Virus record (IMG/VR): IMGVR_UViG_3300025450_000015
Coordinates: 89,701-153,700 of that record
DNA: 64,000 bases
DNA from: a virus
Direction: 5' to 3' (one strand)
The translations under genes and the position numbers were made by a program. This document shows, piece by piece, positions 2 through 17,779 of this stretch (position 1 is the first letter of the stretch; every line of letters starts with the position of its first letter). Under the pieces are notes generated by a model. That model made no database searches, was not told the origin of the DNA, and was given only the letters and a program-made list of their open reading frames with translations.

Positions 2-3000
2 TCTGCATCTTATGTAAGTGGCGGAGTTGTAAGTGGCCAAGCTACTGGATTACCAGCAGGCGATGTAGGAAGCACAACCGTAGTTAATCAAATTAACACA
101 AGTGTTAGTTTAATTAATGATATGATTTATAACGGTCTTCCAAAGACTCCTGCAATCACTATCCCACAATTAACTGGATACAATACAAGTTATCTAGTAG
201 GATTTGGATACGGTATAACACAGATTCAAAATAACTATTTGTTTATCAAAGCAGAAATTGCCGCATATCTAAATACATATTATAGTAGCGTGTGGACAAC
301 ATTTGGCGGTACAAACCAAACAGAAACATTACGTGATATCGGTTTCGTATTAGATGGCCTACAGTACGATATGACTTATGGTTGTAATAATCAAAGTATT
401 ATTAATGGTAGCTCTTATTACAGTTTACAAATTCCACAAATCTTAGCATCATACAATGCCGCAACTGTTGGAGCACTACAACGTTTACAAGCAATTATCA
501 GTCAGATAGTTACAGGTACAAGTGTAACAGCAACAAGCGGTAACTCTGTAACGCAGTCAACTGGCGGTTCAGCAGGTTCAGCCGCAGCCGCAAGTTTTGC
601 CGCAGGCCGCGTTGGTGATGTAATTTACTGGTTACAAAATGCTACAAGTAATGCAACTACATTAACACTAGTCGGTAGTGTGAGTGGTACAACTTTAACT
701 GTTACTTCAGGAACAGGTAATGGAATTTATATTGGTTCTATGTTAACTGGTACAGGTGTTGTGGCAGGTACATATATTGTTAATCAATTAACAAGTTCTG
801 CAAGTGCAACAGCGGCTACAACATTAGCCAGCGGAGGATCAGCTGGTACTAATACATTTGTGGTTTCAAGTGCAACAGGTATTGCGGCAGGACAATTAAT
901 TACAGGTACTAACCTTCCAGCTGGATCTTATGTTAGCTCATCATATATTAGCGGAACAAGTATTACCGTAGTTAATGCGTTTGGTGCTCCACAAAACTTT
1001 ACGTCAACTGGCGGTACAGGTGCATACTTATTCTATCCAGCTAACGGTGCAGGTACTTATACGTTGAGTACTAGTGGCAATACTGGTACAACATTTACAG
1101 CATTGTCAACATTCACACCAGTAACAAGCGGTGCGTATGCCTTAGTAACCAATCAATACTTACAAACAGCATATAATAATTTAATTGCAAGACAAACCGA
1201 AATTGCAAGCGATGCTCAAGTTTGGGTTCAAAAATATTATCAAGCATATCCAATCAGTCAATCATTAACTCAACGCGATGCTGGTTATATTGCATTGGCA
1301 TTAGCTTGGGATGTTTTATTTGGTACTAACTTTAATAGTATTGCATGCGGTCGTGCATTTAATCGTTTAAACGCAAGTGCGTTGGCATTAGTGGCAAATA
1401 CAAACCAAGAATTGAATGCAACAACCGGTGCAATAACATTTATTGGATTTAAAGCAAAACAAATTGCAAGTGCAGGTTCGACAGTTCAAGCACAAACATT
1501 GATTGATGATATCGTAACTAAGATCAATGGACAAGTAGCGTTTAATACTGTTGGTTCAGCAATTCTTGCAGGTACACAGACTATTGCCTATGGTACAGCA
1601 GACGTAATTACTGTAACAACATCGGGCGGTACAGCTACATTCTCAGTATCGTTGACTCCAGCAACTACTGGACAAACTATCACATACATTACTGCTGGTG
1701 GTTTAGCAACATTTAGTAGTGCTCAAACATTAGTTAAAGGTACATCTGTTACTCTTGCGGCAGCCGCAGGCGGTATGTCAGCAGGCACATATTATGTAAC
1801 AACTGGTGTAAACAACAGTTTTACTGTAAGTTTATCTAGCAGTTATGCAAATGCAGTGGCGGGAACACCTGGTTCATTTACAGGTGGTACAGTTACTGGA
1901 GCAGTTGGCGTAGTAACTATTGGTACATACTATAATACTATCGCATCTGTAACAGTAACATCTGGTGGTAACTGGAACAACACAAGTTTATACAGTGCCG
2001 CACAAGCAACAACAACTACAAGTTCAGGACAAGGTTTAACATTGTCATTAGGATTTGTATCAAGTAGTTATTCAACTACAGTAGCTGGTGTACAAACATC
2101 TAGCAATATTGTAACACTTGGAAGTACAGCAGGTATGCCAACTAACATGCCAATTACATTCTCAGGTTTACCAGCTTTAGGTTCTGTAACAGCAACAGCT
2201 ACTACAACAACCAGCAATTTAATTACAGTTGCAACTACAACAGGCTTATCAGTTGGACAGCAAGTGTACTTCACAGGTACAGTATTTGGTAATATTGTTC
2301 CAAGCCAGTTATACTATATTGCAAGTATCCCAACACCTGGAACTAACGGTACAATTACTGTTAGTTTAACATTTGGTGGCGGTAATGTGGCATTGATATC
2401 AGCAACTGGTACAATGACAATGGCATTCAATAACGCAGGCGGACTATGGAATAATACTACATACTGGATTAATTCATTGCAATCTGCCGCAACATTAAGC
2501 ACATTGGCAATTACTAGTACAACAGGTGTATTCAGTTGTGCAACAAGTTCAGTAACATTAACAGTAGGACAGCCAGTTGTTATTACTGGTACGTTCTCAG
2601 CTGGTAGTATCACTGGTTATACTAGTGGTGCAACATATTATATTATTGGTAATCCAACATCAACAGCTTTCCAATTGTCAGCAACATTAGGCGGAAGTGC
2701 TGTAACATCAACAACATCAGGTGGAACAATTACTGGTATTACTGTAACAGTTCCTGCCGCAACATTAACATTGACCAACAGCTTTAAGAGTGGTACAGCA
2801 TACACAATTACTAATACAGTAACTGGTATGTCAGCTACAACCACTGCTGGAGCAACAGTGACATGGCCATATTTAAATAATCCAATGATTAATGGTTCAT
2901 TAACTTACAATGATAACGTTCTAACAATTCAAGGCACAGAAATTCTTCGTGCTAACATTCCATTCCTGGCCGCAGAAGCATCTGCTTATACAGTAGCAAG

Positions 3001-6000
3001 TTACGGCGGTACAGTATCCAGTATAACATCTGGTAGTGTTGTTAATACAAGTGGCGCACATAATTTATTAGTAAATGACCCAGTAGTGTTTACTGGTACT
3101 GTTGGTTCAAGCAATATTGTTGCTGGTACTACTTATTATGTTTTAACTGTGCCAAGCTCAACAACATTTACTATCAGTGCAACTCAATATGGCACAGGTA
3201 CACAAACAACATTTACATTAGCAACAGGTTCGTTAGGAAGTTTAACTGTAGGCTACTACTATAACTATGCTAAGTGTGTACGCGATACAACAAACTTTAT
3301 CAATGCGTTGATTTATGATATTAATTATACAGGTAACTGGAAATCAATGCGTGCCGCAGAACTTTATGTTAACGCGGTGGCAGGATCTACAACACAAAAC
3401 TTCTATCTAGTAAGAAATGCATGTGGTATTCGTAATCAAACTATGAACGGATTGACTGGTGTTTTAAGTACAGCAAATGCTTATGGAACACGTCGACCAA
3501 CAGCAGGTGCGTATGCAAGTTTAGATCCAGGCTTTGGACCAAACGATCAAAATGCATGGGTCTATGCACGTTCAACATTCGTACAAAATTGTACAATGTT
3601 CGGTTACGCTTGCGTTGGCGCCAAAGTTGACGGTGCATTGCATGCCGGTGGATACAAATCAATGGTTGCAAACGACTATACTTGTGTTATCGGCGATGGT
3701 ATCGGTTGGTGGACAACTGGAACAGGTTCATTATCAGAACTTGTTTCAGTGTTTAACTACTACAGCTACGCTGGATACATGAGTGAATTAGGAGGACGCA
3801 TTCGTGCTACTAACGGTAACAGTTCATATGGTACATACGGTGTAGTTGCCGAAGGTGTTGACACATTTGAAACTCCAATTTACGGTACTGTAAATAACAG
3901 AAGTTACGGACCTCAAGTTACTAACGTGGTTACAGATAGTACAACACAAATTTTACGTTTAGAATACGAAAATGCAGGTACAAACTACACCAATGCTATA
4001 CCAACAATTAGTGGATCAGGTTATAACATTCTTTCTTTTGCAGATGAGTTCCGTGATGCTGGTGTATTTGAATCACGTTTAATTGACTTAAACAATGGTT
4101 TAGGTGTTGGCGGTTCAAGTTATGTAAGTTCTGTTAACGTAGGCCAAGGCGGTGCAGTAGGTTATATTACTATTGCGGCAGCCGACGTAGCATTGACTGG
4201 TTCATATAACGGAATGAAAGTACAAATTACTGCTGGTACAGGTGTTGGACAATATGCGTCAATACTAACTTATACTAACGGTAGTAAAATTGCACAAATT
4301 ATTCGTACAACATTTGCAACCTTAACTGTTACCAGTTCAAGTACTACTGCATTAACTGTGGCAAGTACTGCAACATTATATGTTGGTATGCCAATTTACT
4401 TGAGTACAACCGCTACTAATATGAATTTGACTGCATATCAAGTTTATTATGTACAGGCTATTTCAAGTACAACTCAGTTTACACTAGCATTAACATCAGG
4501 CGGTTCTGCAATTACTGGTTTAACAGCAACTAGTGGACAAACAGTCAGCTTATATGCCGCTGGTTGGGATCATGTTGTACCAGGTACTCCTATAGTTAAC
4601 ACATTAGATTTAACTACAGCATATATTATTGAACCTTATGTTTCATTCACAGGTCCAGGTTATGCCGCAACAGCAAGAACATTACCAGCTACAGCAATCT
4701 GGTCAAGTATTACATACGGTGCTGGAAATTATGTAGCAATTGCCAATGGTAGTACATCGACTGCAATTAGCACTAACGGTAAAACATGGACTCCAGGTGG
4801 TGCATTAACAGCTTCTGCATTTACAAACGTTGTTTACGGTGGAGGTCAAAGTGCTGCCGCAACAGTAACACTAGGTGGATTTGGCGGATCTGGTGCTCAG
4901 TTGACAGCAGTGATTGGTACTGGAACAAGTTTAGGACAAGTAGTTGGAGTCAACGTAATTAACGGCGGTTACAACTATAATACTGCTCCATCATTATTGT
5001 TTACAGGTGGTGGCGGTACCGGTGCCCAAGGAACAGCAGTTGTTCTTAACGGAGTAATTCAATCAGTTATTATTACAGTTAATGGTTCTGGATATACTTC
5101 AGCACCGACTGTAACAGTTGTAACTAGTGCTATTACTGCGATTACTCCTATCACTTGGGGTAAAAATTATTTCAATAGCGGAAACGTTAGCGTAACAATC
5201 AGTGCTCCATTTAGTGGAACTGTTTGGAGTGGAAGTTCGAGTGCAACAAGTGGCTCATACTATTACTATTATAGTGGTGCAACTCAAGCTACAAACTATT
5301 ACCTAGCAACATCGAGCGGAACATTTTCATCAACTGCTCCAACGTTTACAACAGGTACAGGATCTGCAGGAACATATGGTGTGTCATTGACATTCGTAGG
5401 TACTGCCGCAACTGCAACTCCAACATTGACAGATTACGGTGTCAGCAGTTACACAATTACTAACATTGGTTACGGTTATACTGCAACTCCTACTATTACA
5501 ATATTAGATACTAGTGCTAAATTTGTTGCAATTTCTACAACAACTACAGCAACAGCTTATAGTACAGTAGCTAATTTAGGATCATCTTGGACTTCTGGTA
5601 ACGCACTTCCATCCGCTGGATTTAACAGTTTAACTTATGGTAACGGAATTTATGTTGCAGTTGGTTACACTGGAACAACATCTAATGCCAGTGCTATTAT
5701 TACATCTAGTCCAGACGGTGTTACATGGACTGGCAGAACAGCTCCAAGCGGTGCAACACAAGCGTTTACATCTGTGGCATTTGGCTGGACTGGACCAGGA
5801 TCTAGTGCAACAACTACAGGTATGTTTGTAGCTATCGCAACTAACAGTACATCAACAGCTTACAGTACTAACGGTTTAACATGGACTACTGGTGGTGCAT
5901 TACCGTCAGTTGCTAACTGGTCTAGCGTAACTTATGGTAACGGACGTTTTGTTGCAGTAGCCGCAGGTAGCAATATTGTTGCATACAGCAACAACGGTGG

Positions 6001-9000
6001 TGTAACTTGGTACTCAAGTGTAGCAAATAACGGTACATACTTACCATTAGCACAAAACTGGGGAATCTCATACGGAGAAGGACAGTTCTTTGCAACAGCA
6101 ACAGGACCAACTCCTACAATGACAGCTACTACTTCAAGTGGTAACTTGATTACATTAAGCAGTACAGCCGGTTTGAACGTAGGAAATACTATTGTTCCAA
6201 CAGCAGTGACTGAAACTACAGTGGCTAGTCAGACAATTAATGCAACAGCAATTGGATTGTCAACATCGTTTATTTCTAACGGTATTGCAGGCAACGCAGG
6301 TACAACATTAACTGCACCAGTTGGTTTAGGTCCGTTTGCACTAGGTATGTATTTGACTGGTTCAAATGTGACATCAGGAACTTACATTACTGGTAGCAAT
6401 ACATTTAATTCAACATCGTCAACGATTGCAGGATCTATATTGACCATTGGCGGTACAGTTACTGGTACTGGTACAACCAGTGCTTATAGTGTACAACCTG
6501 GAATGGCATTAACTGGCGCACAATTTAACACTACAAGTTCATACATTTGGAACACGTACTATCCAAGTGGTGTACAAACTGGTGTATTTGTACCAGCAGG
6601 TACAACTACTGGTGTAATTACAACAGGTAGTCAGTTGAGCGGTACAAATATAACTACTGGTGCTACTTATATTGTTTCAAATCCAACTACTTCAGGTAGC
6701 ACAATTACTGGAACAGCATCTCCAAGCACAGTAGTTACATTCAACGGTAGTGTTTCTATAGTTAACGGACAAGGTATTTTAACTGTGTCTTCAACACCAA
6801 GCGGTGTTGGTATTCAACCAGGTTATATTCTAAGTGGTACAGGTGTTACAGCTGGCACAACTATTGTTGCACCATACGGTTCATCAACAACTCCAACTAG
6901 CTCAACCGGTCAGTGGATTGTCAGCGTAGCAACAGTAGTTAGTTCAACTGCATTGACAGGCACACCATATGTACTTACAACAACTGGTACTATCAACAAT
7001 AATACATTAATACCAGGTATGGTATTGGCTAGTACAGGCGGTACTGGTACAATTACCGCTGGTACATATATTACTGGACAAATCAGTACTACAAGTAGTG
7101 CGGTAGGTACAGGTACAGGAGTAAGCGGAACAATTGGTACTACTACACTAGTAATATCTGGTTCATCGACTGGATTCGCTGTAGGACAATTAATTACTGG
7201 CGGTAGTTTGTTCTATAACACTTATGTAGTTGCTGTTTCAGTTGCAACCAACACAACAATTACATTAAGTCAGCCATTATATGCAACAATCGGTGGCGGA
7301 ACATACAACGGTTATATTCCTGGTACTGCTGGACAATACTTTATTAGCACTACTAGTTTAGTAACCAGTGTTACTGTAACCGGTAATGCATGGGTAGCTA
7401 ACACTGGCTCATTAGTTCCATCTACAACAATAACAGGCGGATTGACTGCTTATATTGCATATCAAAATACAAGCTCTGCAAGTGCAGTAGCAAGTCCAAG
7501 TTGGGCATCTGGTGGTACTATTGGTGCAAGTTCTTTTGTTGTTAATACTGGAACAGGTATCGTAGCAGGCCAATTAATTATTGGTACAGGCATCCCATCA
7601 GGAACAGTAGTAGCAAGTTCATATGTTCCTGGTAGTACAACAGTTCCATTAGCCGTGGGAGTCGCAGGAGGCGCGGCGGCAACTATTGCTGGGTCAAATG
7701 CTACTGGTACTTATAACTTCTATACAGCAGGCGGAACTGGTACATACACATTGAATACTAGTGCATTAACTATTTCAAGTGCTCAGACAATTGGCGGACA
7801 AAGCTGGACAATTACTCCAAGTCAAACAGCGGCAGCTGGTGCAATCACTGGTACACAAAATACAATTACAGTTGGAAACACAGCCGGTATGTCAGTGGGC
7901 GAACCAATAGTGTTTACGAGTAATATTGTTAGCACAACATTGACTACAACAGCCGCTACTGGTAACTTGTTAACAGTTGGTACAACTGTTGGTATGGCGG
8001 TAGGTGCTCCAGTCGTGTTTACAGCAGTGACCCAAACTGGTAATATTACTTCTACATCTAGTACTGGTAACACAATTACATTGAACTCAACTACTGGTTT
8101 AGTACAAGGTGAAACTATTGTGTTCACAGCAGTTAGTCAAACAACTACATTAACTGCTACAACTAACGGATCATTTACATTATCAAGTTCTAGTATTACT
8201 AACAGTATATTAACTGTTGGTACTTTGAGTGCAGGTACAATCACTCCAGGAGCTGTTATTTCAGGTGGTAGTATTCCTGCTGGAACATATATTATATCAA
8301 ATATATCTGGTAGTGGTAACGGTAGTACTTGGAACGTAAGTACAAGTTCAGGATTTACACAAACTAGTACAAGTATTACAGGTACATTAAACATTATCAC
8401 TGTTAACTCTAACAGCGGTATGTTAATTGGTGAAACATTTACAGTTGCTACTAACGTAGGTAACTTGATTTCAGGTAACACATATTATATTACTAAAACT
8501 ATTAGTACTAACCAGCTTGCTGTAGGTACTGTGTATGGTGCCACAAGTGATTTGACTTTAGTAACAACTACTGGTCAAAGTGTTAGCGTAACAGCTGGTG
8601 CGACATTAGGCGGCGGTAATTTAACAGCTAGTACTACATTCTATATCACTAGTGTAGCAGGCAGTAATATTACAATTAGTACAGTATACAATGGTTCATC
8701 GGTAACTATTGCTAACGGTACAGGTGTATGGACATTTGTAGCAGGTGCCGCTTTTGGTAGTATTACAAGCGGTACAACATACTACGTTACAAGCATTCCA
8801 ACTCCGGGTGTAAACGGTACAATCACTGTAAGTACAACTTATGGCGGTTCTAACTTAACTGTAACAAACGGAAATGGATCATGGTCAGTAACTGAAGGTG
8901 CAACATTTGGTGGATTAACATCCGGCTCGACATATTTCATTACTGAAATTGTTGGAAGTACACTAATATCAGTAAGTACAATTTATGGTGGAACCAATGC

Positions 9001-10897
9001 GGTAGTTACTAACGCTGGCGGATCTTGGACTGCACAAGCAGGTTCATTATTTGGTAACTTGATTTCAGGTAATACATACTATATTGCTAGTATTGCAGGC
9101 AATCAGATTACTGTAAGTGCAAGTAGTACTTTATCTCCAGTAATTACATTAGTTAATGACACAGGTGCATGGACAAGTACAATTGGTACAAACATCGCGG
9201 CAACAAGTTGGGACGGTATCAACTGGACACAGCAAACATTGCCAACATACGCAAGTTGGATCACTCCATCATTTGGTAATCCATTAGTTACAACAACTGG
9301 TTACACACCACTATGGGTAACCGCAAGTAACCAATCTGGTACAGTAGCGGCAAGTATTCATACCGGTGCAACACCGTTGGCACGTACAAAAGTAGCTAGT
9401 GGTGCTTTAACTGAAATACGTATGATTGAACCAGGCAGTGGATTTGCTAAAGGTGTTGTTACTGGAACTACGTATGTTGCTGGTACAACAGTTACCGTAA
9501 CAGCCGTATCTGGAAATTCAATTACAATCGGTGCAACCAATTTAACAATTGGCCAACCAATTACATTTGCTACTGGGTTTGGTAACGTAGTTGCAAACAC
9601 AACTTATTATGTACAAGTAACAAGTTCAGGTACAACACTAACTATCAGTTCAACTTATTATGGTAGTCCATTTAATGCAGGTACTGCAAGTAGCATATCA
9701 GTAGCTGGTACAGTTGGACCATTGAATTTAATTACTGTAGATCAAACAGAAAACATGTATAATCTACAACCAATTGAATTCAATACTGTAAGCTCTGGCG
9801 GATTAAGCACACAAACAACTTACTATGTAATTGGATCAACAATTCAATCTACTACATTCCAAGTTGCAACTTCATCTGCATTGGCAACAATTGGTACTAG
9901 TGTTACATTAACAACAAGTACTCCAACTGGTATGCAATATACAACAGGACCAACATTAACTATTACCGATCCTAACCAAGTTAACAAAGCACCAACTCGT
10001 GTACGTACAGGTGATGGTGTGTTAGGTAACCCAAGTTTCCCATGTCGTGGTGCTGGAAATGCAACAGCAACAGCAAGTATTACTGGCGATGGATATGCTG
10101 ATATCTACCAGAATACAGCATTTATTAACGTTGCTAATTTATATGCATTACCTGCCGCAGGTGCTAACGTACAGTTCAGCAGTATTTCTAACGCATGGTA
10201 CAAACTAGTTGCTACAAGTAATCAATTAGGACAAGCAGGTAACTATACTGCTACATTCCAAGTAAGTCCAAGTCTAACAACTTATCTTGCTCCACCGAAC
10301 GGTGCATTGATTACTACAAGATTGAAATACAGTCAAACACGTTTAACTGGACATGACTTCTTGTATGTTGGCTCAGGTAACCAAACACAAACTAACTATC
10401 CAAACGTTACTGATGCAAATGCAATTCAGGCTAACCAAACATATCCAAATATTGGTGGTCGCGTATTCTTTACATCAACTGACCAAGACGGTAACTTTAA
10501 CGTTGGTAACTTGTTTGGAGTTCAACAAGCGACTGGTACAGCTACATTGAATGCCAACGCATTTAACTTAGCTGGATTACAGAGTTTGACACTAGGTTCA
10601 GTAAGTTTAGGTGTAAATAGTGCAACGATTACGCAATTTAGTACAGATCCGTACTTTACTGCTAATAGTGACAATATTTTACCAACACAAAAAGCTATTA
10701 AATCTTACATCACAGCCCAAATTGGTGGCGGATCAAGTAGTTTGAACGTAAATACACTAACGGCAGGACAGATATACATAGCTGGTAATACTATTAGTAA
10801 CCTAAATGGTAATCAAATTTATGTTAGCAGTAAGATGCTGTTCACAGGCGGAATTGACGGTGCTCCTGTAGCTACCGTATTCTTCTTATCAAGATAA
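2..10897 (+). CDS. Giant virion structural / tail fibre protein (5'-truncated, >3600 aa)
   Basis: The frame of ORF 122..10897 stays open back to position 2, so the gene starts upstream of the window. It is Thr/Gly/Ser-rich with repeated 'G..I.F...FGNL..G.TYY(I/V)' modules and propeller-like 'WSSVTYGNGRFVAVA / S.DG.TWT' repeats. The C-terminal GHDFL...GGRVFFTSTDQDGNF region resembles large structural proteins of aquatic T4-like phages. Confidence 0.8.
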   Translation, partial: SASYVSGGVVSGQATGLPAGDVGSTTVVNQINTSVSLINDMIYNGLPKTPAITIPQLTGYNTSYLVGFGYGITQIQNNYLFIKAEIAAYLNTYYSSVWTTFGGTNQTETLRDIGFVLDGLQYDMTYGCNNQSIINGSSYYSLQIPQILASYNAATVGALQRLQAIISQIVTGTSVTATSGNSVTQSTGGSAGSAAAASFAAGRVGDVIYWLQNATSNATTLTLVGSVSGTTLTVTSGTGNGIYIGSMLTGTGVVAGTYIVNQLTSSASATAATTLASGGSAGTNTFVVSSATGIAAGQLITGTNLPAGSYVSSSYISGTSITVVNAFGAPQNFTSTGGTGAYLFYPANGAGTYTLSTSGNTGTTFTALSTFTPVTSGAYALVTNQYLQTAYNNLIARQTEIASDAQVWVQKYYQAYPISQSLTQRDAGYIALALAWDVLFGTNFNSIACGRAFNRLNASALALVANTNQELNATTGAITFIGFKAKQIASAGSTVQAQTLIDDIVTKINGQVAFNTVGSAILAGTQTIAYGTADVITVTTSGGTATFSVSLTPATTGQTITYITAGGLATFSSAQTLVKGTSVTLAAAAGGMSAGTYYVTTGVNNSFTVSLSSSYANAVAGTPGSFTGGTVTGAVGVVTIGTYYNTIASVTVTSGGNWNNTSLYSAAQATTTTSSGQGLTLSLGFVSSSYSTTVAGVQTSSNIVTLGSTAGMPTNMPITFSGLPALGSVTATATTTTSNLITVATTTGLSVGQQVYFTGTVFGNIVPSQLYYIASIPTPGTNGTITVSLTFGGGNVALISATGTMTMAFNNAGGLWNNTTYWINSLQSAATLSTLAITSTTGVFSCATSSVTLTVGQPVVITGTFSAGSITGYTSGATYYIIGNPTSTAFQLSATLGGSAVTSTTSGGTITGITVTVPAATLTLTNSFKSGTAYTITNTVTGMSATTTAGATVTWPYLNNPMINGSLTYNDNVLTIQGTEILRANIPFLAAEASAYTVASYGGTVSSITSGSVVNTSGAHNLLVNDPVVFTGTVGSSNIVAGTTYYVLTVPSSTTFTISATQYGTGTQTTFTLATGSLGSLTVGYYYNYAKCVRDTTNFINALIYDINYTGNWKSMRAAELYVNAVAGSTTQNFYLVRNACGIRNQTMNGLTGVLSTANAYGTRRPTAGAYASLDPGFGPNDQNAWVYARSTFVQNCTMFGYACVGAKVDGALHAGGYKSMVANDYTCVIGDGIGWWTTGTGSLSELVSVFNYYSYAGYMSELGGRIRATNGNSSYGTYGVVAEGVDTFETPIYGTVNNRSYGPQVTNVVTDSTTQILRLEYENAGTNYTNAIPTISGSGYNILSFADEFRDAGVFESRLIDLNNGLGVGGSSYVSSVNVGQGGAVGYITIAAADVALTGSYNGMKVQITAGTGVGQYASILTYTNGSKIAQIIRTTFATLTVTSSSTTALTVASTATLYVGMPIYLSTTATNMNLTAYQVYYVQAISSTTQFTLALTSGGSAITGLTATSGQTVSLYAAGWDHVVPGTPIVNTLDLTTAYIIEPYVSFTGPGYAATARTLPATAIWSSITYGAGNYVAIANGSTSTAISTNGKTWTPGGALTASAFTNVVYGGGQSAAATVTLGGFGGSGAQLTAVIGTGTSLGQVVGVNVINGGYNYNTAPSLLFTGGGGTGAQGTAVVLNGVIQSVIITVNGSGYTSAPTVTVVTSAITAITPITWGKNYFNSGNVSVTISAPFSGTVWSGSSSATSGSYYYYYSGATQATNYYLATSSGTFSSTAPTFTTGTGSAGTYGVSLTFVGTAATATPTLTDYGVSSYTITNIGYGYTATPTITILDTSAKFVAISTTTTATAYSTVANLGSSWTSGNALPSAGFNSLTYGNGIYVAVGYTGTTSNASAIITSSPDGVTWTGRTAPSGATQAFTSVAFGWTGPGSSATTTGMFVAIATNSTSTAYSTNGLTWTTGGALPSVANWSSVTYGNGRFVAVAAGSNIVAYSNNGGVTWYSSVANNGTYLPLAQNWGISYGEGQFFATATGPTPTMTATTSSGNLITLSSTAGLNVGNTIVPTAVTETTVASQTINATAIGLSTSFISNGIAGNAGTTLTAPVGLGPFALGMYLTGSNVTSGTYITGSNTFNSTSSTIAGSILTIGGTVTGTGTTSAYSVQPGMALTGAQFNTTSSYIWNTYYPSGVQTGVFVPAGTTTGVITTGSQLSGTNITTGATYIVSNPTTSGSTITGTASPSTVVTFNGSVSIVNGQGILTVSSTPSGVGIQPGYILSGTGVTAGTTIVAPYGSSTTPTSSTGQWIVSVATVVSSTALTGTPYVLTTTGTINNNTLIPGMVLASTGGTGTITAGTYITGQISTTSSAVGTGTGVSGTIGTTTLVISGSSTGFAVGQLITGGSLFYNTYVVAVSVATNTTITLSQPLYATIGGGTYNGYIPGTAGQYFISTTSLVTSVTVTGNAWVANTGSLVPSTTITGGLTAYIAYQNTSSASAVASPSWASGGTIGASSFVVNTGTGIVAGQLIIGTGIPSGTVVASSYVPGSTTVPLAVGVAGGAAATIAGSNATGTYNFYTAGGTGTYTLNTSALTISSAQTIGGQSWTITPSQTAAAGAITGTQNTITVGNTAGMSVGEPIVFTSNIVSTTLTTTAATGNLLTVGTTVGMAVGAPVVFTAVTQTGNITSTSSTGNTITLNSTTGLVQGETIVFTAVSQTTTLTATTNGSFTLSSSSITNSILTVGTLSAGTITPGAVISGGSIPAGTYIISNISGSGNGSTWNVSTSSGFTQTSTSITGTLNIITVNSNSGMLIGETFTVATNVGNLISGNTYYITKTISTNQLAVGTVYGATSDLTLVTTTGQSVSVTAGATLGGGNLTASTTFYITSVAGSNITISTVYNGSSVTIANGTGVWTFVAGAAFGSITSGTTYYVTSIPTPGVNGTITVSTTYGGSNLTVTNGNGSWSVTEGATFGGLTSGSTYFITEIVGSTLISVSTIYGGTNAVVTNAGGSWTAQAGSLFGNLISGNTYYIASIAGNQITVSASSTLSPVITLVNDTGAWTSTIGTNIAATSWDGINWTQQTLPTYASWITPSFGNPLVTTTGYTPLWVTASNQSGTVAASIHTGATPLARTKVASGALTEIRMIEPGSGFAKGVVTGTTYVAGTTVTVTAVSGNSITIGATNLTIGQPITFATGFGNVVANTTYYVQVTSSGTTLTISSTYYGSPFNAGTASSISVAGTVGPLNLITVDQTENMYNLQPIEFNTVSSGGLSTQTTYYVIGSTIQSTTFQVATSSALATIGTSVTLTTSTPTGMQYTTGPTLTITDPNQVNKAPTRVRTGDGVLGNPSFPCRGAGNATATASITGDGYADIYQNTAFINVANLYALPAAGANVQFSSISNAWYKLVATSNQLGQAGNYTATFQVSPSLTTYLAPPNGALITTRLKYSQTRLTGHDFLYVGSGNQTQTNYPNVTDANAIQANQTYPNIGGRVFFTSTDQDGNFNVGNLFGVQQATGTATLNANAFNLAGLQSLTLGSVSLGVNSATITQFSTDPYFTANSDNILPTQKAIKSYITAQIGGGSSSLNVNTLTAGQIYIAGNTISNLNGNQIYVSSKMLFTGGIDGAPVATVFFLSR

Positions 10898-11278: not shown

Positions 11279-13249
11279 ATGGCACGTTATAATACATCGC
11301 TGGCAACAGAAATTGTTTCCGGAGCACAAACTCTGTTAACACCTGCACAAGGTGGTTACACAGAATTTCAAGGATCTGCACCGTACACGGTGGTTATCCC
11401 AGGACCAACATTATTTTTAGGACAGTCGCAAAGTTATTTTAACAACACTAGTGGTGTTGTTACACTTTCTGCTCCTAGCGGATATATTGCTGGTAGTCCT
11501 AGTTCTCCGGTGTTTAACGGACCAGGTGGTTCTAGTACAAACTTATTGGCCATGCCAGCAGGATCTAGTTGTATTATTGGATCTGATGGTACTAACTATA
11601 GTATAATTACATTCCCAGGCGGTAATCAATTTGGTATTAACGGAACTTTTTCAGCTGATTTGATTAGTACCAATACTGGTACCACCAATATCTACAATAC
11701 AAATACTCAGACAGTTAACTTTGCAGGCGCGGCAACTAGTATCAATATTGGTTCTAGCACTGGTACAACTACTATTAACAATCAATTGTTAGTAAAAGGC
11801 GGAACAGTTGTTCTTAACTCTAGTTCAGTACGTACAGAAGATAAAAATATTGAAATTGGATATGTTAATCCAGTTACTTATGGTGGCGGTACTGTTACAA
11901 CTATCGGTGGTGCGTTAGGCGGTAGTACAACATTTACAAGTATTACTGGTACAAAAGTAACTGGTGCAGGTACATACAGTGGTGTTGGACAATTTGCTAC
12001 AAGTGGTAGCGGATCGGGTGCAACTTTTAACATCACTACAACTGGGTCAGGTACAACTTATACTGGTGTAACTACAATTACATTGGTTAATCCAGGAAGT
12101 AACTATGCAATCAATGATACAATTACTATTGGTGGTAACTTACTTGGTGGTACTAATAGTCCTAACAACTTAACATTCACTGTAAGCAACGTTAACTACA
12201 GTCCTTGGATTGCAACTATTACCGGTATGCCCAACACTACCAACTTGGTAAACGGTCAAGCTGTTAGTGCAACTAACGGTACAGGTAGTTTAGGCGGCGG
12301 CGGTACAAGTTATGTAATAAGCAACATTGTAAGTGGAACTAGTATTCAGGTAACAGTAACAGGCGGCACAACTCCTGTAGCTGGTACAATTACAGCTATT
12401 ACTCCAGGTAGTGCTGATACATTTGCCAACGGCGGCGGCATATTATTATATGGAACTAGTAATCACACATTACAATGGGCAAGCAGTACATTAGGTCCAA
12501 CAAGCGGTGGCGGTAACCCAGCTTGGGTTAGTTCAGAAGGGTTGTATATCAATACTTCTAATACATTTGGTATTCAAAGTGGTAGCAACGTTAACTTTAA
12601 CTTATTGACCAACGGTCAAGCTACTGGTACTGTTAACATTGCAACCAACGCTGGTACAGGTAACTTGTTTACTGGAGCAAGTTCAGCAGTTAACATTGGT
12701 GCTAGCGGTGGTACTGCTACAATCAGCAACACTAACTTTACAGTTGGACAGTCTGGTGGTACAGTTACTTTTAACGGTATTACAACTTTCACAATGAATA
12801 GCGTAACAGCGTTTAACTTAACTGGCGGCGGTACAATGAATGCTGGTAGTACATATGGTTATTTTAGTTCGCTAGGCGTTGGTACTAACACTAACGGTGG
12901 TGGTGGTACAATTTATGCGGCAAACAACATTGTTGCTTACTACTCAGATGACAGATTAAAGACACGTTTGGGCAAAATTGAAGATGCTCTTGCTAAGTTA
13001 GAAACATTAAATGGTTTTTACTTTGAAGCTAACCAAACTGCTCAGGATTTGGGATATACTGTTCAACGTGAAGTTGGAGTTTCTGCTCAAGAAGTTAATG
13101 CAATCCTGCCAGAAATTATCAAACCAGCTCCAATCGACGCTAAGTACATGACAGTTCAGTACGAAAAGTTATTACCATTAGTGATTGAAGCAGTTAAGGA
13201 ATTGTCAAGCCAAGTTAAAGAATTAAAAGCACAGATTAACAAGGAATAA
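11279..13249 (+). CDS. Tail fibre protein with C-terminal peptidase S74 intramolecular chaperone
   Basis: Gly/Thr-rich body. The C-terminal YYSDDRLK...GVSAQEV...YEKLLPLVIEAVKEL coiled coil is the S74 auto-cleaving chaperone signature. Confidence 0.85.
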   Translation: MARYNTSLATEIVSGAQTLLTPAQGGYTEFQGSAPYTVVIPGPTLFLGQSQSYFNNTSGVVTLSAPSGYIAGSPSSPVFNGPGGSSTNLLAMPAGSSCIIGSDGTNYSIITFPGGNQFGINGTFSADLISTNTGTTNIYNTNTQTVNFAGAATSINIGSSTGTTTINNQLLVKGGTVVLNSSSVRTEDKNIEIGYVNPVTYGGGTVTTIGGALGGSTTFTSITGTKVTGAGTYSGVGQFATSGSGSGATFNITTTGSGTTYTGVTTITLVNPGSNYAINDTITIGGNLLGGTNSPNNLTFTVSNVNYSPWIATITGMPNTTNLVNGQAVSATNGTGSLGGGGTSYVISNIVSGTSIQVTVTGGTTPVAGTITAITPGSADTFANGGGILLYGTSNHTLQWASSTLGPTSGGGNPAWVSSEGLYINTSNTFGIQSGSNVNFNLLTNGQATGTVNIATNAGTGNLFTGASSAVNIGASGGTATISNTNFTVGQSGGTVTFNGITTFTMNSVTAFNLTGGGTMNAGSTYGYFSSLGVGTNTNGGGGTIYAANNIVAYYSDDRLKTRLGKIEDALAKLETLNGFYFEANQTAQDLGYTVQREVGVSAQEVNAILPEIIKPAPIDAKYMTVQYEKLLPLVIEAVKELSSQVKELKAQINKE

Positions 13250-13252
13250 ACG

Positions 13253-13654
13253 ATGACAACTCCTTCAAGTCCTATTTATATTAGTCAAATTGACGGCGAA
13301 ATTGGACTGCCTAACAGCAGTCCATACAGCAATTTGAGTAATCTTAATGGATATGTAATTCCAGGACAACGTGATAGTTACCCAACTATGAACGAAATGC
13401 GTAACAGAGCATACTATCGTTCAAATAACAAGGGTAATTGCAACAACGGAAATTGTCCAAATAATTGTAATTGTGGTAACATTTGCTGTACAAACTGTTA
13501 TAATTGTAATAACATCAATTGCACAAATTGCGATGGTCAAAACTGGTTACAAAACAACTGTAATTGCAACTGCACTTACAACTGTAACATTAATACCAAC
13601 GTATATTATAACTGTAATTGTAACTGTAATTGTAACTGTAACTGTAACTGCTAA
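13253..13654 (+). CDS. Asn-Cys-rich protein; putative radical SAM substrate (RiPP-like precursor / tail-tip protein)
   Basis: AAGGA RBS. Residues 1-62 contain no Cys. Residues 63-133 contain 21 Cys, 19 of them preceded by Asn, and end in (NC)7. The gene lies immediately upstream of a rSAM/SPASM gene. Confidence 0.8.
   Translation: MTTPSSPIYISQIDGEIGLPNSSPYSNLSNLNGYVIPGQRDSYPTMNEMRNRAYYRSNNKGNCNNGNCPNNCNCGNICCTNCYNCNNINCTNCDGQNWLQNNCNCNCTYNCNINTNVYYNCNCNCNCNCNCNC
13610..13651 (+). repeat. (AAY TGY)7 hexamer tandem repeat encoding (Asn-Cys)7
   Basis: aac tgt aat tgt aac tgt aat tgt aac tgt aac tgt aac tgc. Variation occurs only at synonymous third positions. Confidence 0.9.
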
Positions 13655-13672
13655 TATACCACAAGGAATCTT

Positions 13673-15139
13673 ATGATTTTTGAAATACTGACAGAAAAGT
13701 TTGGATCAAACCCACCTGATCTAAGAACGTTCTTCTATGACAACGAAAAAAATGTCTTAAGCGATGAAACAGGATTCGTCTATGAGTATCCCGATGCTTA
13801 TGCAAATAATTTTGAAAATCGAGTACCATACAAACCATTTGATAAAGATCGTCCTTTAATTAAATCTCGCAGTACTAATCACGTAAAAATTCAACTAGGA
13901 TTAAGTTGTAATTATAGTTGTGATTATTGCAGTCAAAAATTTGTGGAACGCCCACGTGAAACTAATGCTAAAGACATTGAAAATTTTATGGAAATGTTTA
14001 AGACTTTAGAGTTTAACGAAGAAGACGGTTTACGAGTTGAATTTTGGGGAGGTGAACCTTTAGTTTACTGGAAGACATTAAAACCCCTGGCCGAAGCAGT
14101 AGCAGAATTTTTTAAAGATTGGAGAAAGAAACCAGTTTTTAGTATTATTACTAATGGTAGTATTTTAACAGAAGAAATCTGTGCTTGGCTATACAGTATG
14201 GAATTCCATGTAGCTATCAGTCATGACGGGCCAGGACAACATGTACGCGGACCAGATCCATTTGCAGATCCTAAGAAACGTGAAATTATTTTAGATTTAT
14301 ACCAGATTTTGCGTCCTTTAAATCGCATCAGTTTTAACTCAATGTTAAACAGACAAAATCTTAGTCGTAAAGCTATATTTGATTATTTTATTAATTTTAC
14401 AAATGATCCCAATGTTAGTTTAGGTGAAGGTACCTTTGTAGATGCATATGATGCCGATGGCCTACAACACAGTTTACAAACTAAACAAGATCATTTCGAA
14501 TTTAGAAAAATCGCGTTCGGAGAAATTTACGGATCTAACGGTGAAATCGGCTTTGGCAACATATTACAAAAAGTTGATAATTTCACAGAATCAGTATTGA
14601 CCCATCAGCAAGCAGACTATTTAGGTCAAAAATGCGGCATGGATGACGAAAGAACCGTTGCATTTGATTTAAACGGCAATGTAATTACTTGCCAAAATGT
14701 CAGTGCTATCGAAATTAACAAAAACGGAGAACCTCACTTAGGTGGTAAGATTACTGAGATCGAGGACGTAAAAATTACTACTAGTACACACTGGAGTAAT
14801 CGTGCAGAATGTCCAAGTTGTCCAGTGTTGCATATTTGTAAAGGTGCATGTATGTTCCTTTCAGATGAATTCTGGACTACAAGTTGCAATAACGCCTATA
14901 GCGATAACGTACCATTGTTTGCCGCAAGTATTGAAAAAATAACAGGTGGTTATGTTCCTTACCATATTAAGGGCAAAGGATTACCATTAGAGCGCCAAGA
15001 TATCTGGGGCGGTGTATTCAAACACGAAGAAGAAAAGAAAAAAATAATACCTATTAAGATTGTCAGTGAAAAAGTTGCTGTAATCGACAATGTCGAAGTT
15101 TACGGTAAGAGTTCCTTGATAAATACTGAACAGGAATAA
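13673..15139 (+). CDS. Radical SAM/SPASM-domain protein (putative peptide/protein maturase)
   Basis: CNYSCDYC (CX3CX2C, C79/83/86), FWGGEP, ITNG and ISHDG motifs. The C-terminal CX13GX4C...CX2CX5CX3CX11C seven-Cys pattern is SPASM-type. Confidence 0.92.
   Translation: MIFEILTEKFGSNPPDLRTFFYDNEKNVLSDETGFVYEYPDAYANNFENRVPYKPFDKDRPLIKSRSTNHVKIQLGLSCNYSCDYCSQKFVERPRETNAKDIENFMEMFKTLEFNEEDGLRVEFWGGEPLVYWKTLKPLAEAVAEFFKDWRKKPVFSIITNGSILTEEICAWLYSMEFHVAISHDGPGQHVRGPDPFADPKKREIILDLYQILRPLNRISFNSMLNRQNLSRKAIFDYFINFTNDPNVSLGEGTFVDAYDADGLQHSLQTKQDHFEFRKIAFGEIYGSNGEIGFGNILQKVDNFTESVLTHQQADYLGQKCGMDDERTVAFDLNGNVITCQNVSAIEINKNGEPHLGGKITEIEDVKITTSTHWSNRAECPSCPVLHICKGACMFLSDEFWTTSCNNAYSDNVPLFAASIEKITGGYVPYHIKGKGLPLERQDIWGGVFKHEEEKKKIIPIKIVSEKVAVIDNVEVYGKSSLINTEQE
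15118..15125 (+). promoter_or_regulatory. Putative T4-type late promoter (GATAAATA)
   Basis: Same TAAATA core as found upstream of the structural genes. It lies in the rSAM 3' end, upstream of ORF 15153. Confidence 0.45.
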
Positions 15140-15152
15140 GGAATAGCAGATC

Positions 15153-16148
15153 ATGAATTTAACTCAAAATTTAATACAGTTTCAACATTCGCAGTTGATA
15201 GCACTAGATATAAAATTTACTGACACTGGATTTCAGTGGACAGTATTTGATGCCTATAAAAAATCAGAATTGCAGTTGGAATGGGCTAGTTTAGCAGATA
15301 ATACCGTTACTGCTAGAAAAGTAGCCGGAGTTAGATATCCAAGCCCTGCTGACGAATTTGCATGGGAAACAGAAACACATAGAGTTTATAGTCAAACTTC
15401 AGGAGTCTATCCTGGTGTAACAGCAGGAATTTCTGGAGAAATAAATTGGACAGATATTACCAACAATGAGGGATTTTCAGATCATGCTATTTTTGCAATC
15501 ACTCACCCAGCTGACCAAGTTACTGTAAGAAATTTAAATGTAAGATACGTTCAACAAACTGCTTTGAATACAAGAACAGGTATCCCATTATACAATTTAG
15601 TAGCCAATTCACAACTACATAAGAAAAATCCAGTTAGGGCAATGTCTTTGCAAAAGAATAGTCCTATGATTTTAATTTCTATTCCGTTTGCAGAAATGAA
15701 TCCATCAGATTGGAACATGATGGTTGCGTTGGGCGATAGCGATCCTGGCCTAGTAAGAATATCGTCAGGCGAACAATTCACAAATGTAATCACCGACGAG
15801 CTTGGCAGAATCGTATATACTATGCCAAAAGTTTATTTTACAAATAAGACTGCTACTGTCAGCCCAGACGGCTATGTCGATTTACCGTTTTACTTAGGAA
15901 CTCCTACCGATTTAAATCCCCCAGCAAAAACAAGCTCTGAGCATGGATTGCCTATAACGGATCACAATGCAACTATATATTTAAAAACTACGGCAGGTCA
16001 CTTGAATAAACAACAAGTACAAACAGTCAACGGTGTAGGAACTGTTCGTTTAATTGCAACACATCTTGTTCCAGGTGACACTATCACAGTAAGTTGTGGT
16101 TTTCAATATTGGTCAGGATCAGACGACTGCGTTATAACCGTACAATAA
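15153..16148 (+). CDS. Hypothetical protein in rSAM cluster, probable C-terminal Ig-like beta-sandwich
   Basis: 331-aa ORF with an AAGGA RBS. The C-terminal ...VNGVGTVRLIATHLVPGDTITVSCGF segment is a run of beta-strands. Confidence 0.6.
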   Translation: MNLTQNLIQFQHSQLIALDIKFTDTGFQWTVFDAYKKSELQLEWASLADNTVTARKVAGVRYPSPADEFAWETETHRVYSQTSGVYPGVTAGISGEINWTDITNNEGFSDHAIFAITHPADQVTVRNLNVRYVQQTALNTRTGIPLYNLVANSQLHKKNPVRAMSLQKNSPMILISIPFAEMNPSDWNMMVALGDSDPGLVRISSGEQFTNVITDELGRIVYTMPKVYFTNKTATVSPDGYVDLPFYLGTPTDLNPPAKTSSEHGLPITDHNATIYLKTTAGHLNKQQVQTVNGVGTVRLIATHLVPGDTITVSCGFQYWSGSDDCVITVQ

Positions 16149-16155
16149 GGTTTTT

Positions 16156-17358
16156 ATGAAAATAGGCATTATAGGTAGTGGTACCGCCAGCGCCGTTTCA
16201 TTACTTGCAATTTTTGATAAATTTAAATTCCATAGATGCAAACACATAGATGTGTATTGCATATACAATCCTGACATTCCTGTAACTACTGTGGGCGAAA
16301 GTACTAGCCCTATAATGCCTAGTTTACTTTATCATGCTATTGATTTTTCTGTTACTGAAGAATTAAAAGAGTTCGATGGTACCCTTCGCTGGGGTACTCG
16401 TTACTACTGGGAAGATATTAATGATAAAAATTTCCTAGTAAGGCATGGACATACAGGATTGCATGTCAACAGTGAAAAATTTAGCGGATTTGTTATCAAC
16501 AAACTTGATAAATTATACGATAATTTTTTTCAAATACACGGTAATGTCTCAGACATAACACAAGATCATACTCACGTATCGATATTAGTCGACGGAGTGC
16601 AACATAAATTTGACTATATCATCGATTGTAGAGGATCACCGTCGGCCGAAGAAATGGATAGTGGACTATACGAATTTCCAAAATTTGAAACAGTTAACTC
16701 AGTAATACTATTTCCTGACTTTAAAGAGTATAACGAAGATTTAACAAGTGCATATCCACATGACGACGGCTGGATGTTTGGAGTACCATTAACTCATCGT
16801 AAAGCCTTTGGTTATCTATATAATAAAAATATAACAACTCAGGAAGAAGCGATTGAAAAATTTTCTAAATTAAAAAATATTGATGCTAGTAAATTAAGAA
16901 AATTTAGCTGGAGACAGTATTATAAAAAAGAAGCAATGAATGGACGCATATTATCCATGGGTAACAGACTATATTTTCTTGAACCTGCACAAGCATTGCC
17001 GTTACATTTTTATATAAATTTGTCTGTAGAGTTTATTGAAACATTAATTAAAGGTACTAATTTACAAACACCGCATTTTAATAGAGGAATTAATACTTCT
17101 TATCTTAAAAGTATGGAAGATATGTTGAATTTAGTTGCACTAAACTATGTAGGTCCTTGCAAAAAAGATACGCCTTTCTGGAATACAGTCACAGCACTGG
17201 CTAAAGAACGTTTACAAACATCGGAAAGATTTCAAAAATATGTAAGATTGTGTCAGCAGACTGGAGAATACGAGCAGTATTGGGCACACAATTCAGCCTT
17301 GATGAAAGAATATATCGAAGGCTTTGATATTAAACTAGATCAACTAAGTCAAATATAG
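16156..17358 (+). CDS. Flavin-dependent tryptophan-halogenase-like oxidoreductase
   Basis: Rossmann IGIIGSGTAS, plus VGEST, IDCRG, GWMFGVPL (WxWxIP-like) and FLEPAQA (FxEPLES-like) motifs. Confidence 0.8.
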   Translation: MKIGIIGSGTASAVSLLAIFDKFKFHRCKHIDVYCIYNPDIPVTTVGESTSPIMPSLLYHAIDFSVTEELKEFDGTLRWGTRYYWEDINDKNFLVRHGHTGLHVNSEKFSGFVINKLDKLYDNFFQIHGNVSDITQDHTHVSILVDGVQHKFDYIIDCRGSPSAEEMDSGLYEFPKFETVNSVILFPDFKEYNEDLTSAYPHDDGWMFGVPLTHRKAFGYLYNKNITTQEEAIEKFSKLKNIDASKLRKFSWRQYYKKEAMNGRILSMGNRLYFLEPAQALPLHFYINLSVEFIETLIKGTNLQTPHFNRGINTSYLKSMEDMLNLVALNYVGPCKKDTPFWNTVTALAKERLQTSERFQKYVRLCQQTGEYEQYWAHNSALMKEYIEGFDIKLDQLSQI

Positions 17359-17779
17359 TTTGTAATTTGGTACGAATAGTTTTACTGTTAAAACTATTAC
17401 GTAGTCCTTGATGTAAGGGTTTAGGTGTGCGATCTACAGTAGTCCAAGCCCAACCAATGTGTTCGTCACTCAAGACAGGAACAAACTCGTTATCTATTAC
17501 ACACAAATAAGTATGAAAATTAAATACTTTATCGTTACTGACAAATGTTTCTAATGGGATTGTTTTAATTATTTTAGGCACTGCACCTATTTCTTCTTTA
17601 ATTTCGCGTTGAAGACCTTGCCAAGGTGTTTCACCTATGATGTTTGTCCCGCCGACTAATCCCCACGTGCCTTCGTGTTTACCGTGACTTTTTTGAAGTA
17701 ATAAAAATCGTTGTGTAGATTTAGCATAAAATAATGCACCACTACAAACTATTCTATCTTTTACAATATTATTTTCCAT
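17330..17779 (-). CDS. NUDIX hydrolase
   Basis: Nudix box GTNIIGETPWQGLQREIKEEIG (GX5EX7REUXEEXG) and a downstream LSDEH motif. Confidence 0.88.
   Translation of the reverse strand: MENNIVKDRIVCSGALFYAKSTQRFLLLQKSHGKHEGTWGLVGGTNIIGETPWQGLQREIKEEIGAVPKIIKTIPLETFVSNDKVFNFHTYLCVIDNEFVPVLSDEHIGWAWTTVDRTPKPLHQGLRNSFNSKTIRTKLQTIFDLVDLV

Follow-up and report, generated by a model that had tools for sequence, protein, structure and literature searches.

A radical S-adenosylmethionine (SAM) enzyme with a SPASM domain and a small Cys/Asn-rich protein were found to be a conserved pair tied to tail-fibre genes in a giant freshwater phage, and the same pairing was present beside or inside the tail fibres of more than 100 other phages and prophages. 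The window analysed was a stretch of 64,000 nucleotides from the IMG/VR virus record IMGVR_UViG_3300025450_000015 (positions 89,701 to 153,700 of that record), in which the two genes belong to a four-gene cassette at positions 13253-17358. Judged from sequence, the most likely role of the enzyme is not the production of a free peptide but the modification, probably by cross-linking, of the tip with which the virus binds its host. The reading preferred here, with a rough probability of 0.6, is that the Cys-rich protein would be a fibre-tip or adhesin protein of the virion, modified by the adjacent radical SAM enzyme, most likely with thioethers, and that a flavoprotein and the product of a further gene would act as partners.

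The linkage was analysed in 164 loci, which comprised two isolated phages, one metagenome contig, 81 viral contigs and 80 bacterial genomes or metagenome-assembled genomes (MAGs). The 80 bacterial loci, mostly from freshwater Burkholderiales (Limnohabitans, Polynucleobacter), look like prophages. A Cys-rich open reading frame (ORF) was found directly upstream of the radical SAM gene in all of the ten closest viral loci. When a strict CxCxCxC motif on the strand of the radical SAM gene was demanded, it was detected upstream in 82 of the 159 loci with a radical SAM ORF and downstream in about 35 more, and about four matches in total were obtained on the opposite strand across these 159 loci. With a relaxed definition, the motif was recovered in 82 of the 97 loci with full flanks. 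In 13 of the 15 misses the NC motif was shorter, the copy was frameshifted or the Cys were too few to pass the filter; as for the remaining ones, no more than an 84-aa fragment was left in locus L071, and L144 was not re-read. Five loci (L141, L149, L158, L159 and L160) had short upstream flanks with no Cys motif there, which is not evidence of absence. The original prediction had named a lack of conserved linkage as grounds for abandoning it. Since a same-strand Cys motif was located near the enzyme in nearly all loci, this was not the case, and the expected association of radical SAM homologues with a Cys-rich ORF attached to a tail fibre turned out to be near-universal. In a Comamonadaceae MAG (L097, 4675-5715), the prophage fibre loses its Cys tail by an apparent frameshift near the end, the result either of decay of this copy or of misassembly.

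The fibre nature of the Cys-bearing family was evident from its longer members. The annotated fibre gp028 of Achromobacter phage JWF (L002, 3799-5250) has a T4 gp36-type N-terminus and the sequence ...NCNCDCNCNCSC, directly after which a Hint domain begins, and the side tail fibre of Ralstonia phage RSP15 ends in ...NTNCQCGN. In both phages the radical SAM enzyme is 45-46% identical to that of the window and is encoded within 2 kb of the fibre. The prophage fibres, of 300-620 aa, have a gp36-like N-terminus (MQNYTxIPSS), collagen repeats (PF01391, 2.4e-34) and a PHROG tail-fibre match, also carry the motifs SRVAKSGDTMTG and NYGWLHDYFF, and end in ...NCNCNCxCDC(C/Y/W). In the homologues of L013, L031 and L081 the Cys tail runs into a Peptidase_S74 domain that starts at the Ser after ...CNCACFW; the 133-aa protein of the window itself has no S74 domain.

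Other domains were also seen behind the Cys tail. A Hint/intein-like domain (C/FPAGT...) lies right after the (NC)n stretch in JWF gp028, in a Burkholderia paludis prophage (L094, 3784-5259) and in L118 (3268-4395), and self-cleavage at this domain would expose the Cys tail as the C-terminus. In many viral contigs, among them L026 (7468-8373), L027 (5342-6328), L046 and L054, homologues of the 133-aa protein continue past the Cys tail (...NCNC/SKIICTKLFDLGLM...) with an unnamed domain of about 170 aa (SKIICTKLF...), which has a hydrophobic stretch at its C-terminus and matched nothing in Pfam or PHROGs; it may represent a third type of module for C-terminal assembly or autoprocessing, alongside S74 and Hint. 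The distance from the last alternating-Cys stretch to the C-terminus was 0-12 aa in 62 loci, 90-110 aa in four loci (S74) and 150-185 aa in 14 loci (Hint or the unnamed domain). These distances and the processing domains that follow indicated that, whatever the architecture, the mature protein would end with the Cys motif. Hence, the substrate is most likely a C-terminal tip, in its mature form, of a fibre or adhesin belonging to the virion, and not the leader-core precursor of a peptide made on the ribosome and modified post-translationally (RiPP).

The Cys-rich protein of the window (133 aa, 13253-13654, + strand) is encoded directly after a tail fibre of 656 aa (11279-13249, + strand), which matched PHROG tail-fibre families and carries a C-terminal Peptidase_S74 intramolecular chaperone from Ser556 (SDDRLK); the Pfam match (PF13884, 2.7e-8, residues 556-613) begins at this cleavage Ser. 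The intergenic gaps from the fibre through the last gene of the cassette were 3, 18, 13 and 7 bp, AAGG(A) precedes every ATG, and no terminator-like site was found on the + strand inside 13253-17358. These coordinates agreed with the original prediction, which had described four co-directional genes with short gaps and AAGG(A) ribosome-binding sites, starting 3 bp after the fibre stop codon. The bipartite layout that it had reported was likewise reproduced when the residues were counted again: residues 1-62 (13253-13438) contain no Cys, and the 71-aa core (residues 63-133) contains 21, of which 19 have Asn before them, the last 14 residues being (NC)7. The core holds 18 NC dipeptides, a number that was not reached in any of 100,000 composition-preserving shuffles (maximum, 17).

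Compared with its L006 homologue, the NC gene had a dN of 0.12 with saturated synonymous sites, and lake metagenomes of other years (2018 and 2020) contained contigs with an intact operon that differed by 19-24 substitutions and had no indels. These results indicated a real gene under purifying selection, and not a slipping microsatellite. The length of the (NC)7 repeat was also constant in three other metagenomes. The single Trp of the protein, W98, is located in a conserved NCDGQNWLQ segment. A polymorphism, 13535 G>A (Gly95Ser), was observed in the NCDGQNW segment in the 2018 and 2020 lake metagenomes and in the viral contigs L004 and L005. Metatranscriptome contigs from one lake run touched the fibre gene and gene 3 and not the NC or radical SAM genes, although contigs cannot show expression.

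Nothing in Pfam, NCBIfam or PHROGs matched the 133-aa protein. A profile of the small protein retrieved 130 cluster representatives (E<=1e-3) among 1.84 billion proteins, many of them fused forms of 220-330 aa. In 24 aligned homologues the N-terminal module starts with MTLPxSGxIS..E.G, and this module also heads adhesin-like proteins of 300-370 aa with Gly-rich or other inserts. In the viral contigs L018 (311-1402) and L020 (4876-5976), a poly-Gly-rich insert of about 230 aa separates the N-terminal module from the Cys domain and recalls the Gly-rich motifs found in adhesins of the gp38 type. In the structured part of the Cys/Asn-rich domain (aa 63-119, 13439-13609), the Asn-Cys dipeptide is the invariant unit (GNCNNGNC, C.NC, NC.NCD, NC and YNC, together with an invariant Q). 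The (Asn-Cys)7 tail (13610-13651) corresponds to an alternating-Cys motif of variable length: Cys is the sole residue class conserved along the whole tail, and in relatives A, D, Q or V separates the Cys as often as N does. The AlphaFold2 (AF2) model built from the protein and 24 homologues was unusable, with a predicted local distance difference test (pLDDT) value of 46. Such a failure on a lone Cys domain would fit a fold that depends on cross-links, metal or oligomerization.

The radical SAM enzyme (488 aa, 13673-15139, + strand) had been credited by the original prediction with a CX3CX2C motif and a full seven-Cys SPASM motif, and both were found. The cluster motif is C79-x3-C83-x2-C86 (13907-13930), and the SPASM region (14633-14887) contains C321-x13-G-x4-C340, C380-x2-C383-x5-C389-x3-C393 and C405. 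All ten Cys were invariant in nine homologues, down to 45% identity, and exactly seven Cys of the SPASM region were invariant. The scores for Pfam Radical_SAM (PF04055, 34.8 bits, cut-off 29.5) and NCBIfam SPASM (TIGR04085, 30.6 bits, cut-off 27) exceeded the thresholds. At E<=1e-20 the family has 2290 homologues, most of which belong to freshwater phages or to prophages of Burkholderiales, and annotated records name the enzyme 'radical SAM domain protein' or 'anSME'. The best partial NCBIfam matches were Cys-thioether maturases (PapB, QhpD, geopeptide, CcpM, CefB and SCIFF), aligned mainly over the radical SAM core. A single-sequence search of the PDB also aligned the radical SAM core alone.

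Partner families were obtained by clustering every ORF of the loci. The recurrent set consists of a Cys-tailed fibre or adhesin, a protein of the gene-3 family or, in its place, one of 240 aa (JWF gp029 type), between one and four oxidases that depend on O2, and the radical SAM enzyme. This cassette lies inside the tail modules of myo-, sipho- and Ackermann-type phages; in JWF, the central tail fibre is encoded on one side of it and the lysis genes on the other, and the same tail genes upstream of it recur in the prophage loci. Among the oxidases, 2-oxoglutarate (2OG) oxygenases of the 2OG-FeII_Oxy_5 family were present in 115 loci, and the 2OG-FeII_Oxy_3 cluster had 15 members. The Asp/Asn beta-hydroxylase family PF05118 (38.4 bits, cut-off 22.6) was found in 39 loci; in L053 (4136-4909) such a protein (1.4e-9) is encoded beside an Asn/Asp-rich substrate, as in the 38 others. 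RSP15 ORF046, taken by eye for a 2OG oxygenase, was dropped for lack of a Pfam match.

A halogenase-fold flavoprotein was present in 25 loci. The window clade is unusual in having the flavoprotein alone and no 2OG oxygenase. The flavoprotein of the window (400 aa, 16156-17358, + strand; PF04820, 1.3e-31, 110 bits) lacks the catalytic residues of halogenases: compared with RebH, K79 is replaced by R78, E357 by Q and WxWxIP by WMFGVP, and the three substitutions are conserved in its subfamily (L003-L008 and L016). The reaction in this clade has probably shifted away from halogenation and, because the catalytic Lys and Glu are replaced, would probably be an oxygenation. A second subfamily has retained all the halogenase catalytic residues, with GGGTAGW, the Lys, WxWKIP and EPLEATS in place, and so resembles a functional halogenase; it was seen in the viral contigs L024 (9171-10313), L038, L040, L050, L059, L068, L074 and L079. 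This second subfamily co-occurs with Trp-ended substrates (...CACACW, or ...CFW before the S74 Ser). A flavoprotein was encoded in 14 of the 15 loci with Trp-ended substrates and in 9 of the 116 others, a count that overstates independence, because the loci are related to one another. The association suggests that the flavoproteins act on the aromatic residue of the substrate and, for the loci of the second subfamily, hints at halogenation of the C-terminal Trp on the phage fibre tip.

Gene 3 (331 aa, 15153-16148, + strand) had no match in Pfam, NCBIfam or PHROGs. Its family was present in 60 of the 164 loci, including RSP15 ORF047, typically directly after the gene of the Cys-tailed fibre. 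The AF2 model (pLDDT 79.6) showed an N-terminal domain and an Ig-like domain (Big/intimin-type, aa 225-331); these last 107 residues resembled intimin and GH2-type domains (Z 9.2-11.0, root-mean-square deviation 2.2-2.7 Å over 88-92 residues). In structure searches with this model (Foldseek, VIA), the Ig-like domain was the only part that could be assigned; the N-terminal 224 residues, like the protein over its full length, matched uncharacterized phage proteins only.

These elements could be combined in the following sequence of events. The 133-aa protein would be a small fibre tip or adhesin following the chaperone-bearing fibre, just as gp38 follows gp37 in T2-type phages, and its N-terminal 62 residues would most likely attach it to the particle. 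Its Cys/Asn-rich domain, with the (NC)7 end, would be the substrate of the adjacent radical SAM/SPASM enzyme, which would work in the cytoplasm, before or during fibre assembly. Most likely, hydrogen would be abstracted from a carbon of Asn or Asp (or of a neighbouring residue), and the radical position would then be captured by a Cys thiolate, so that several thioether bridges of the sactionine or ranthionine type would result. Such bridges would brace a small domain without disulfides in the reducing cytoplasm, and could also staple the chains of a trimer. The flavoprotein would then add an O2-dependent modification, as the 2OG oxygenases would in most relatives, and the product of gene 3 would be a substrate chaperone or adaptor, or a further part of the fibre. 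Thioethers with Asn/Asp acceptors, together with hydroxylation, were favoured on account of the Asp/Asn hydroxylase-type partners, the precedents of QhpD/QhpC and CrpC/CrpA, and the logic of folding in a reducing cytoplasm.

A more specific version of this mechanism is put forward tentatively. A thioether ladder, maybe between three chains, would be installed on the tip by the radical SAM enzyme, and oxidation or halogenation of Trp, Asn or Asp by the flavoprotein or the 2OG oxygenases would follow. The stapled part that touches the host would aid stability or recognition, and the degenerate halogenase of the window would be a peptidyl-Trp or sulfur oxygenase, similar to QhpG, within a complex of the radical SAM enzyme and its substrate. 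As regards the acceptor residue, the original prediction had read every NCNC and NGNC as an NxxC motif of the kind used by NxxcB. The motifs of the window do fit NxxC, but AxxC, DxxC and VxxC occur in homologues, and there are isolated invariant NC dipeptides without Cys at +3. N, D, A, Q and V alternate between the Cys of the tail, so that a strict NxxC rule would not apply, and the NxxC reading is one option among others.

Several observations weigh against cross-linking of a fibre tip by thioethers. All NCBIfam equivalog scores were far under their cut-offs: PapB (NF047865) gave 74.1 bits against 340, over the radical SAM core alone, and QhpD (TIGR03906) gave 69.2 bits against 453, with phage structural genes as the neighbours of the window gene. 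The anSME model was the only one to align near full length (TIGR03942 positions 7-324 of 363; residues 14-335 of 4k37), and the nearest solved relative by sequence was TvgB (8vpo), a cyclopropylglycine synthase that forms C-C bonds, followed by CteB and anSME; consequently, the chemistry is not fixed by sequence. The putative attachment role of the N-terminal 62 residues is based on gene position and on a predicted-structure neighbour that is a weak lead (GP38-adhesin and Gly_rich_2 clusters of the Atlas; TM 0.58 over 54 residues). Finally, alternating Cys could simply bind metal.

The alternative that best withstood this evidence, although improbable, was that the enzyme acts on the same fibre substrate with another radical SAM chemistry, such as formylglycine formation of the anSME type, epimerization, C-C links or a Cys-Trp linkage. 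The near full-length alignment of anSME, its similar stretch of about 60 aa before the cluster motif and the C-C bond formation by TvgB all agree with it, and the residue-intact halogenase-type flavoproteins that accompany Trp-ended tails suggest that aromatic residues are also targets in the family. Nevertheless, anSME scored 44.8 bits, far from its cut-off of 349, the 133-aa protein lacks the sulfatase motif C/S-x-P/A-x-R (CxPxR), the top partial matches were all Cys-thioether maturases, and no residue class other than Cys is conserved along the whole tail.

Somewhat less probable still was a metal-binding tip, in which alternating Cys along the trimer axis would hold metal or Fe-S, and the radical SAM enzyme would serve non-covalently, or in cluster loading or repair. 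The HxH repeats of T4 gp37 bind iron. In an (xC)n sequence, alternate residues point to one side of a strand, the position between the Cys tolerates N, A, D or Q, AF2 yielded no fold without ligands, and the motif is at the distal end of trimeric fibres with collagen repeats and an S74 chaperone; all of this would be expected of such a tip. Nevertheless, it accounts neither for the retention of a radical SAM/SPASM enzyme and an oxygenase beside the substrate in almost all loci across unrelated phage types, nor for invariant Asn-Cys dipeptides, beyond Cys alone. A metal-binding tip and cross-linking are, moreover, not mutually exclusive.

The framing of the 133-aa protein as a RiPP precursor, adopted in the original prediction, was given up: although a bipartite protein with a Cys-free N-terminal half and an enzyme class best known from RiPP pathways would suit a leader and a Cys/Asn core released during infection as a diffusible cross-linked peptide (toxin, signal or metallophore), this reading is highly improbable and, of all those considered, fits the fusions to fibres and chaperones least well, because the N-terminal half is a conserved globular module shared with larger adhesin-like proteins and no leader, the Cys tail ends real fibres of 300-620 aa or precedes their S74 or Hint autoprocessing domains, the cassette sits within tail modules of diverse phage types and has no immunity gene, and no protease or transporter was found in it or in the 164 related loci.

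No account of such a system turned up when the full-text literature was searched for radical SAM/SPASM enzymes together with phage tails or tail fibres, in line with the earlier statement that no characterized phage example was known. A cyanophage paper with a radical SAM 'antibiotic synthesis' gene was set aside, as its context was different. As far as these searches reach, no published work describes a radical SAM enzyme that cross-links a receptor-binding fibre of a virion. The cross-linking of the fibre tip would, if true, extend radical SAM/SPASM 'peptide' chemistry to viral structural proteins, would explain the very large orphan family to which the enzyme belongs, and would make sense of the numerous 2OG oxygenase and 'halogenase' genes found in the tail regions of phages. 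It would also offer genetically encoded, reduction-proof staples for protein engineering. Since the culturable phages JWF and RSP15 carry the cassette, the system is directly testable.

Additionally, the surroundings of the cassette were inspected. A NUDIX hydrolase gene (17330-17779, - strand; PF00293, 1.9e-15) is convergent with the flavoprotein gene and shares 29 bp with its 3' end. An ORF at 2-10897 (+ strand), upstream of the fibre genes and open at the 5' end of the window, encodes at least 3591 aa; its content of Thr, Ser, Gly and Ala is extremely high, near-repeats are numerous, and it looks like a huge fibre or decoration protein. The viral record containing the window was listed at 102 kb, with an estimated completeness of 28%. 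The baseplate-type proteins of the phage resemble those of Atu_ph07 and other jumbo myoviruses. A megablast search of the cassette against GenBank phages gave no match.

Among the known systems, anSME resembles the enzyme of the window in acting on proteins, in lacking a large N-terminal recognition domain and in its near full-length alignment, and the JWF homologue is annotated as anSME. It differs in its low score and in the sulfatase motif, and no sulfatase is encoded near the window cassette. The ranthipeptide and sactipeptide maturases (PapB, NxxcB, CteB, CcpM and CefB) have in common with it CX3CX2C, a seven-Cys SPASM motif and Cys-rich repetitive substrates; PapB was the best NCBIfam match and CteB the second closest solved structure. 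In contrast, the scores were far below the cut-offs, the relatives of the window carry CACAC and CDCAC with no conserved NxxC, and the substrate of the window is structural, with fibre domains and no leader-processing or export machinery.

On the fibre side, the gp37-gp38 pairs of T2 and S16 also have a small protein encoded directly after the distal fibre gene, and Gly-rich inserts like those of gp38 occur in relatives of the window protein; in the window, the fibre in question has a self-cleaving S74 chaperone. The gene position agrees with that of gp38, and Pfam GP38 (PF05268) did not match the 133-aa protein even at E<=1. The tip of T4 gp37 is similar in having an every-second-residue motif, HxH there and NC here. 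To our knowledge, no enzyme-dependent modification of gp37 or gp38 is known.

Precedents for protein substrates are two systems in which a radical SAM/SPASM enzyme modifies a protein. In Methanococcus voltae, CrpC installs ranthionine cross-links on the Cys-rich protein CrpA (PMC13692751, 2026). As in the window, the enzyme modifies a neighbouring Cys-rich protein and no short peptide, and the pair was found through gene adjacency. Compared by description, CrpC/CrpA is archaeal and cellular, with a predicted RiPP recognition element in CrpC, whereas the window has a phage tip, an extension of about 60 aa and oxygenases. In the second system, QhpD cross-links QhpC, the gamma subunit of quinohemoprotein amine dehydrogenase (QHNDH), with thioethers, and the halogenase-fold monooxygenase QhpG, which then oxidizes this subunit, acts in a ternary complex (PMC7876137). 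The window has no dehydrogenase subunits, QhpE-type protease or signal peptide, its enzyme is not an orthologue of QhpD (69 bits against 453), its substrate has 21 Cys and lies in a phage tail-fibre module, and most relatives use 2OG oxygenases instead. Nevertheless, QhpD was the second-best NCBIfam match, and in both systems a small Cys-bearing protein, cross-linked through Cys-to-Asp/Glu thioethers in the case of QhpC, is paired with a radical SAM/SPASM enzyme and a halogenase-fold flavoprotein, which is non-halogenating in QhpG and has lost the catalytic Lys and Glu in the window.

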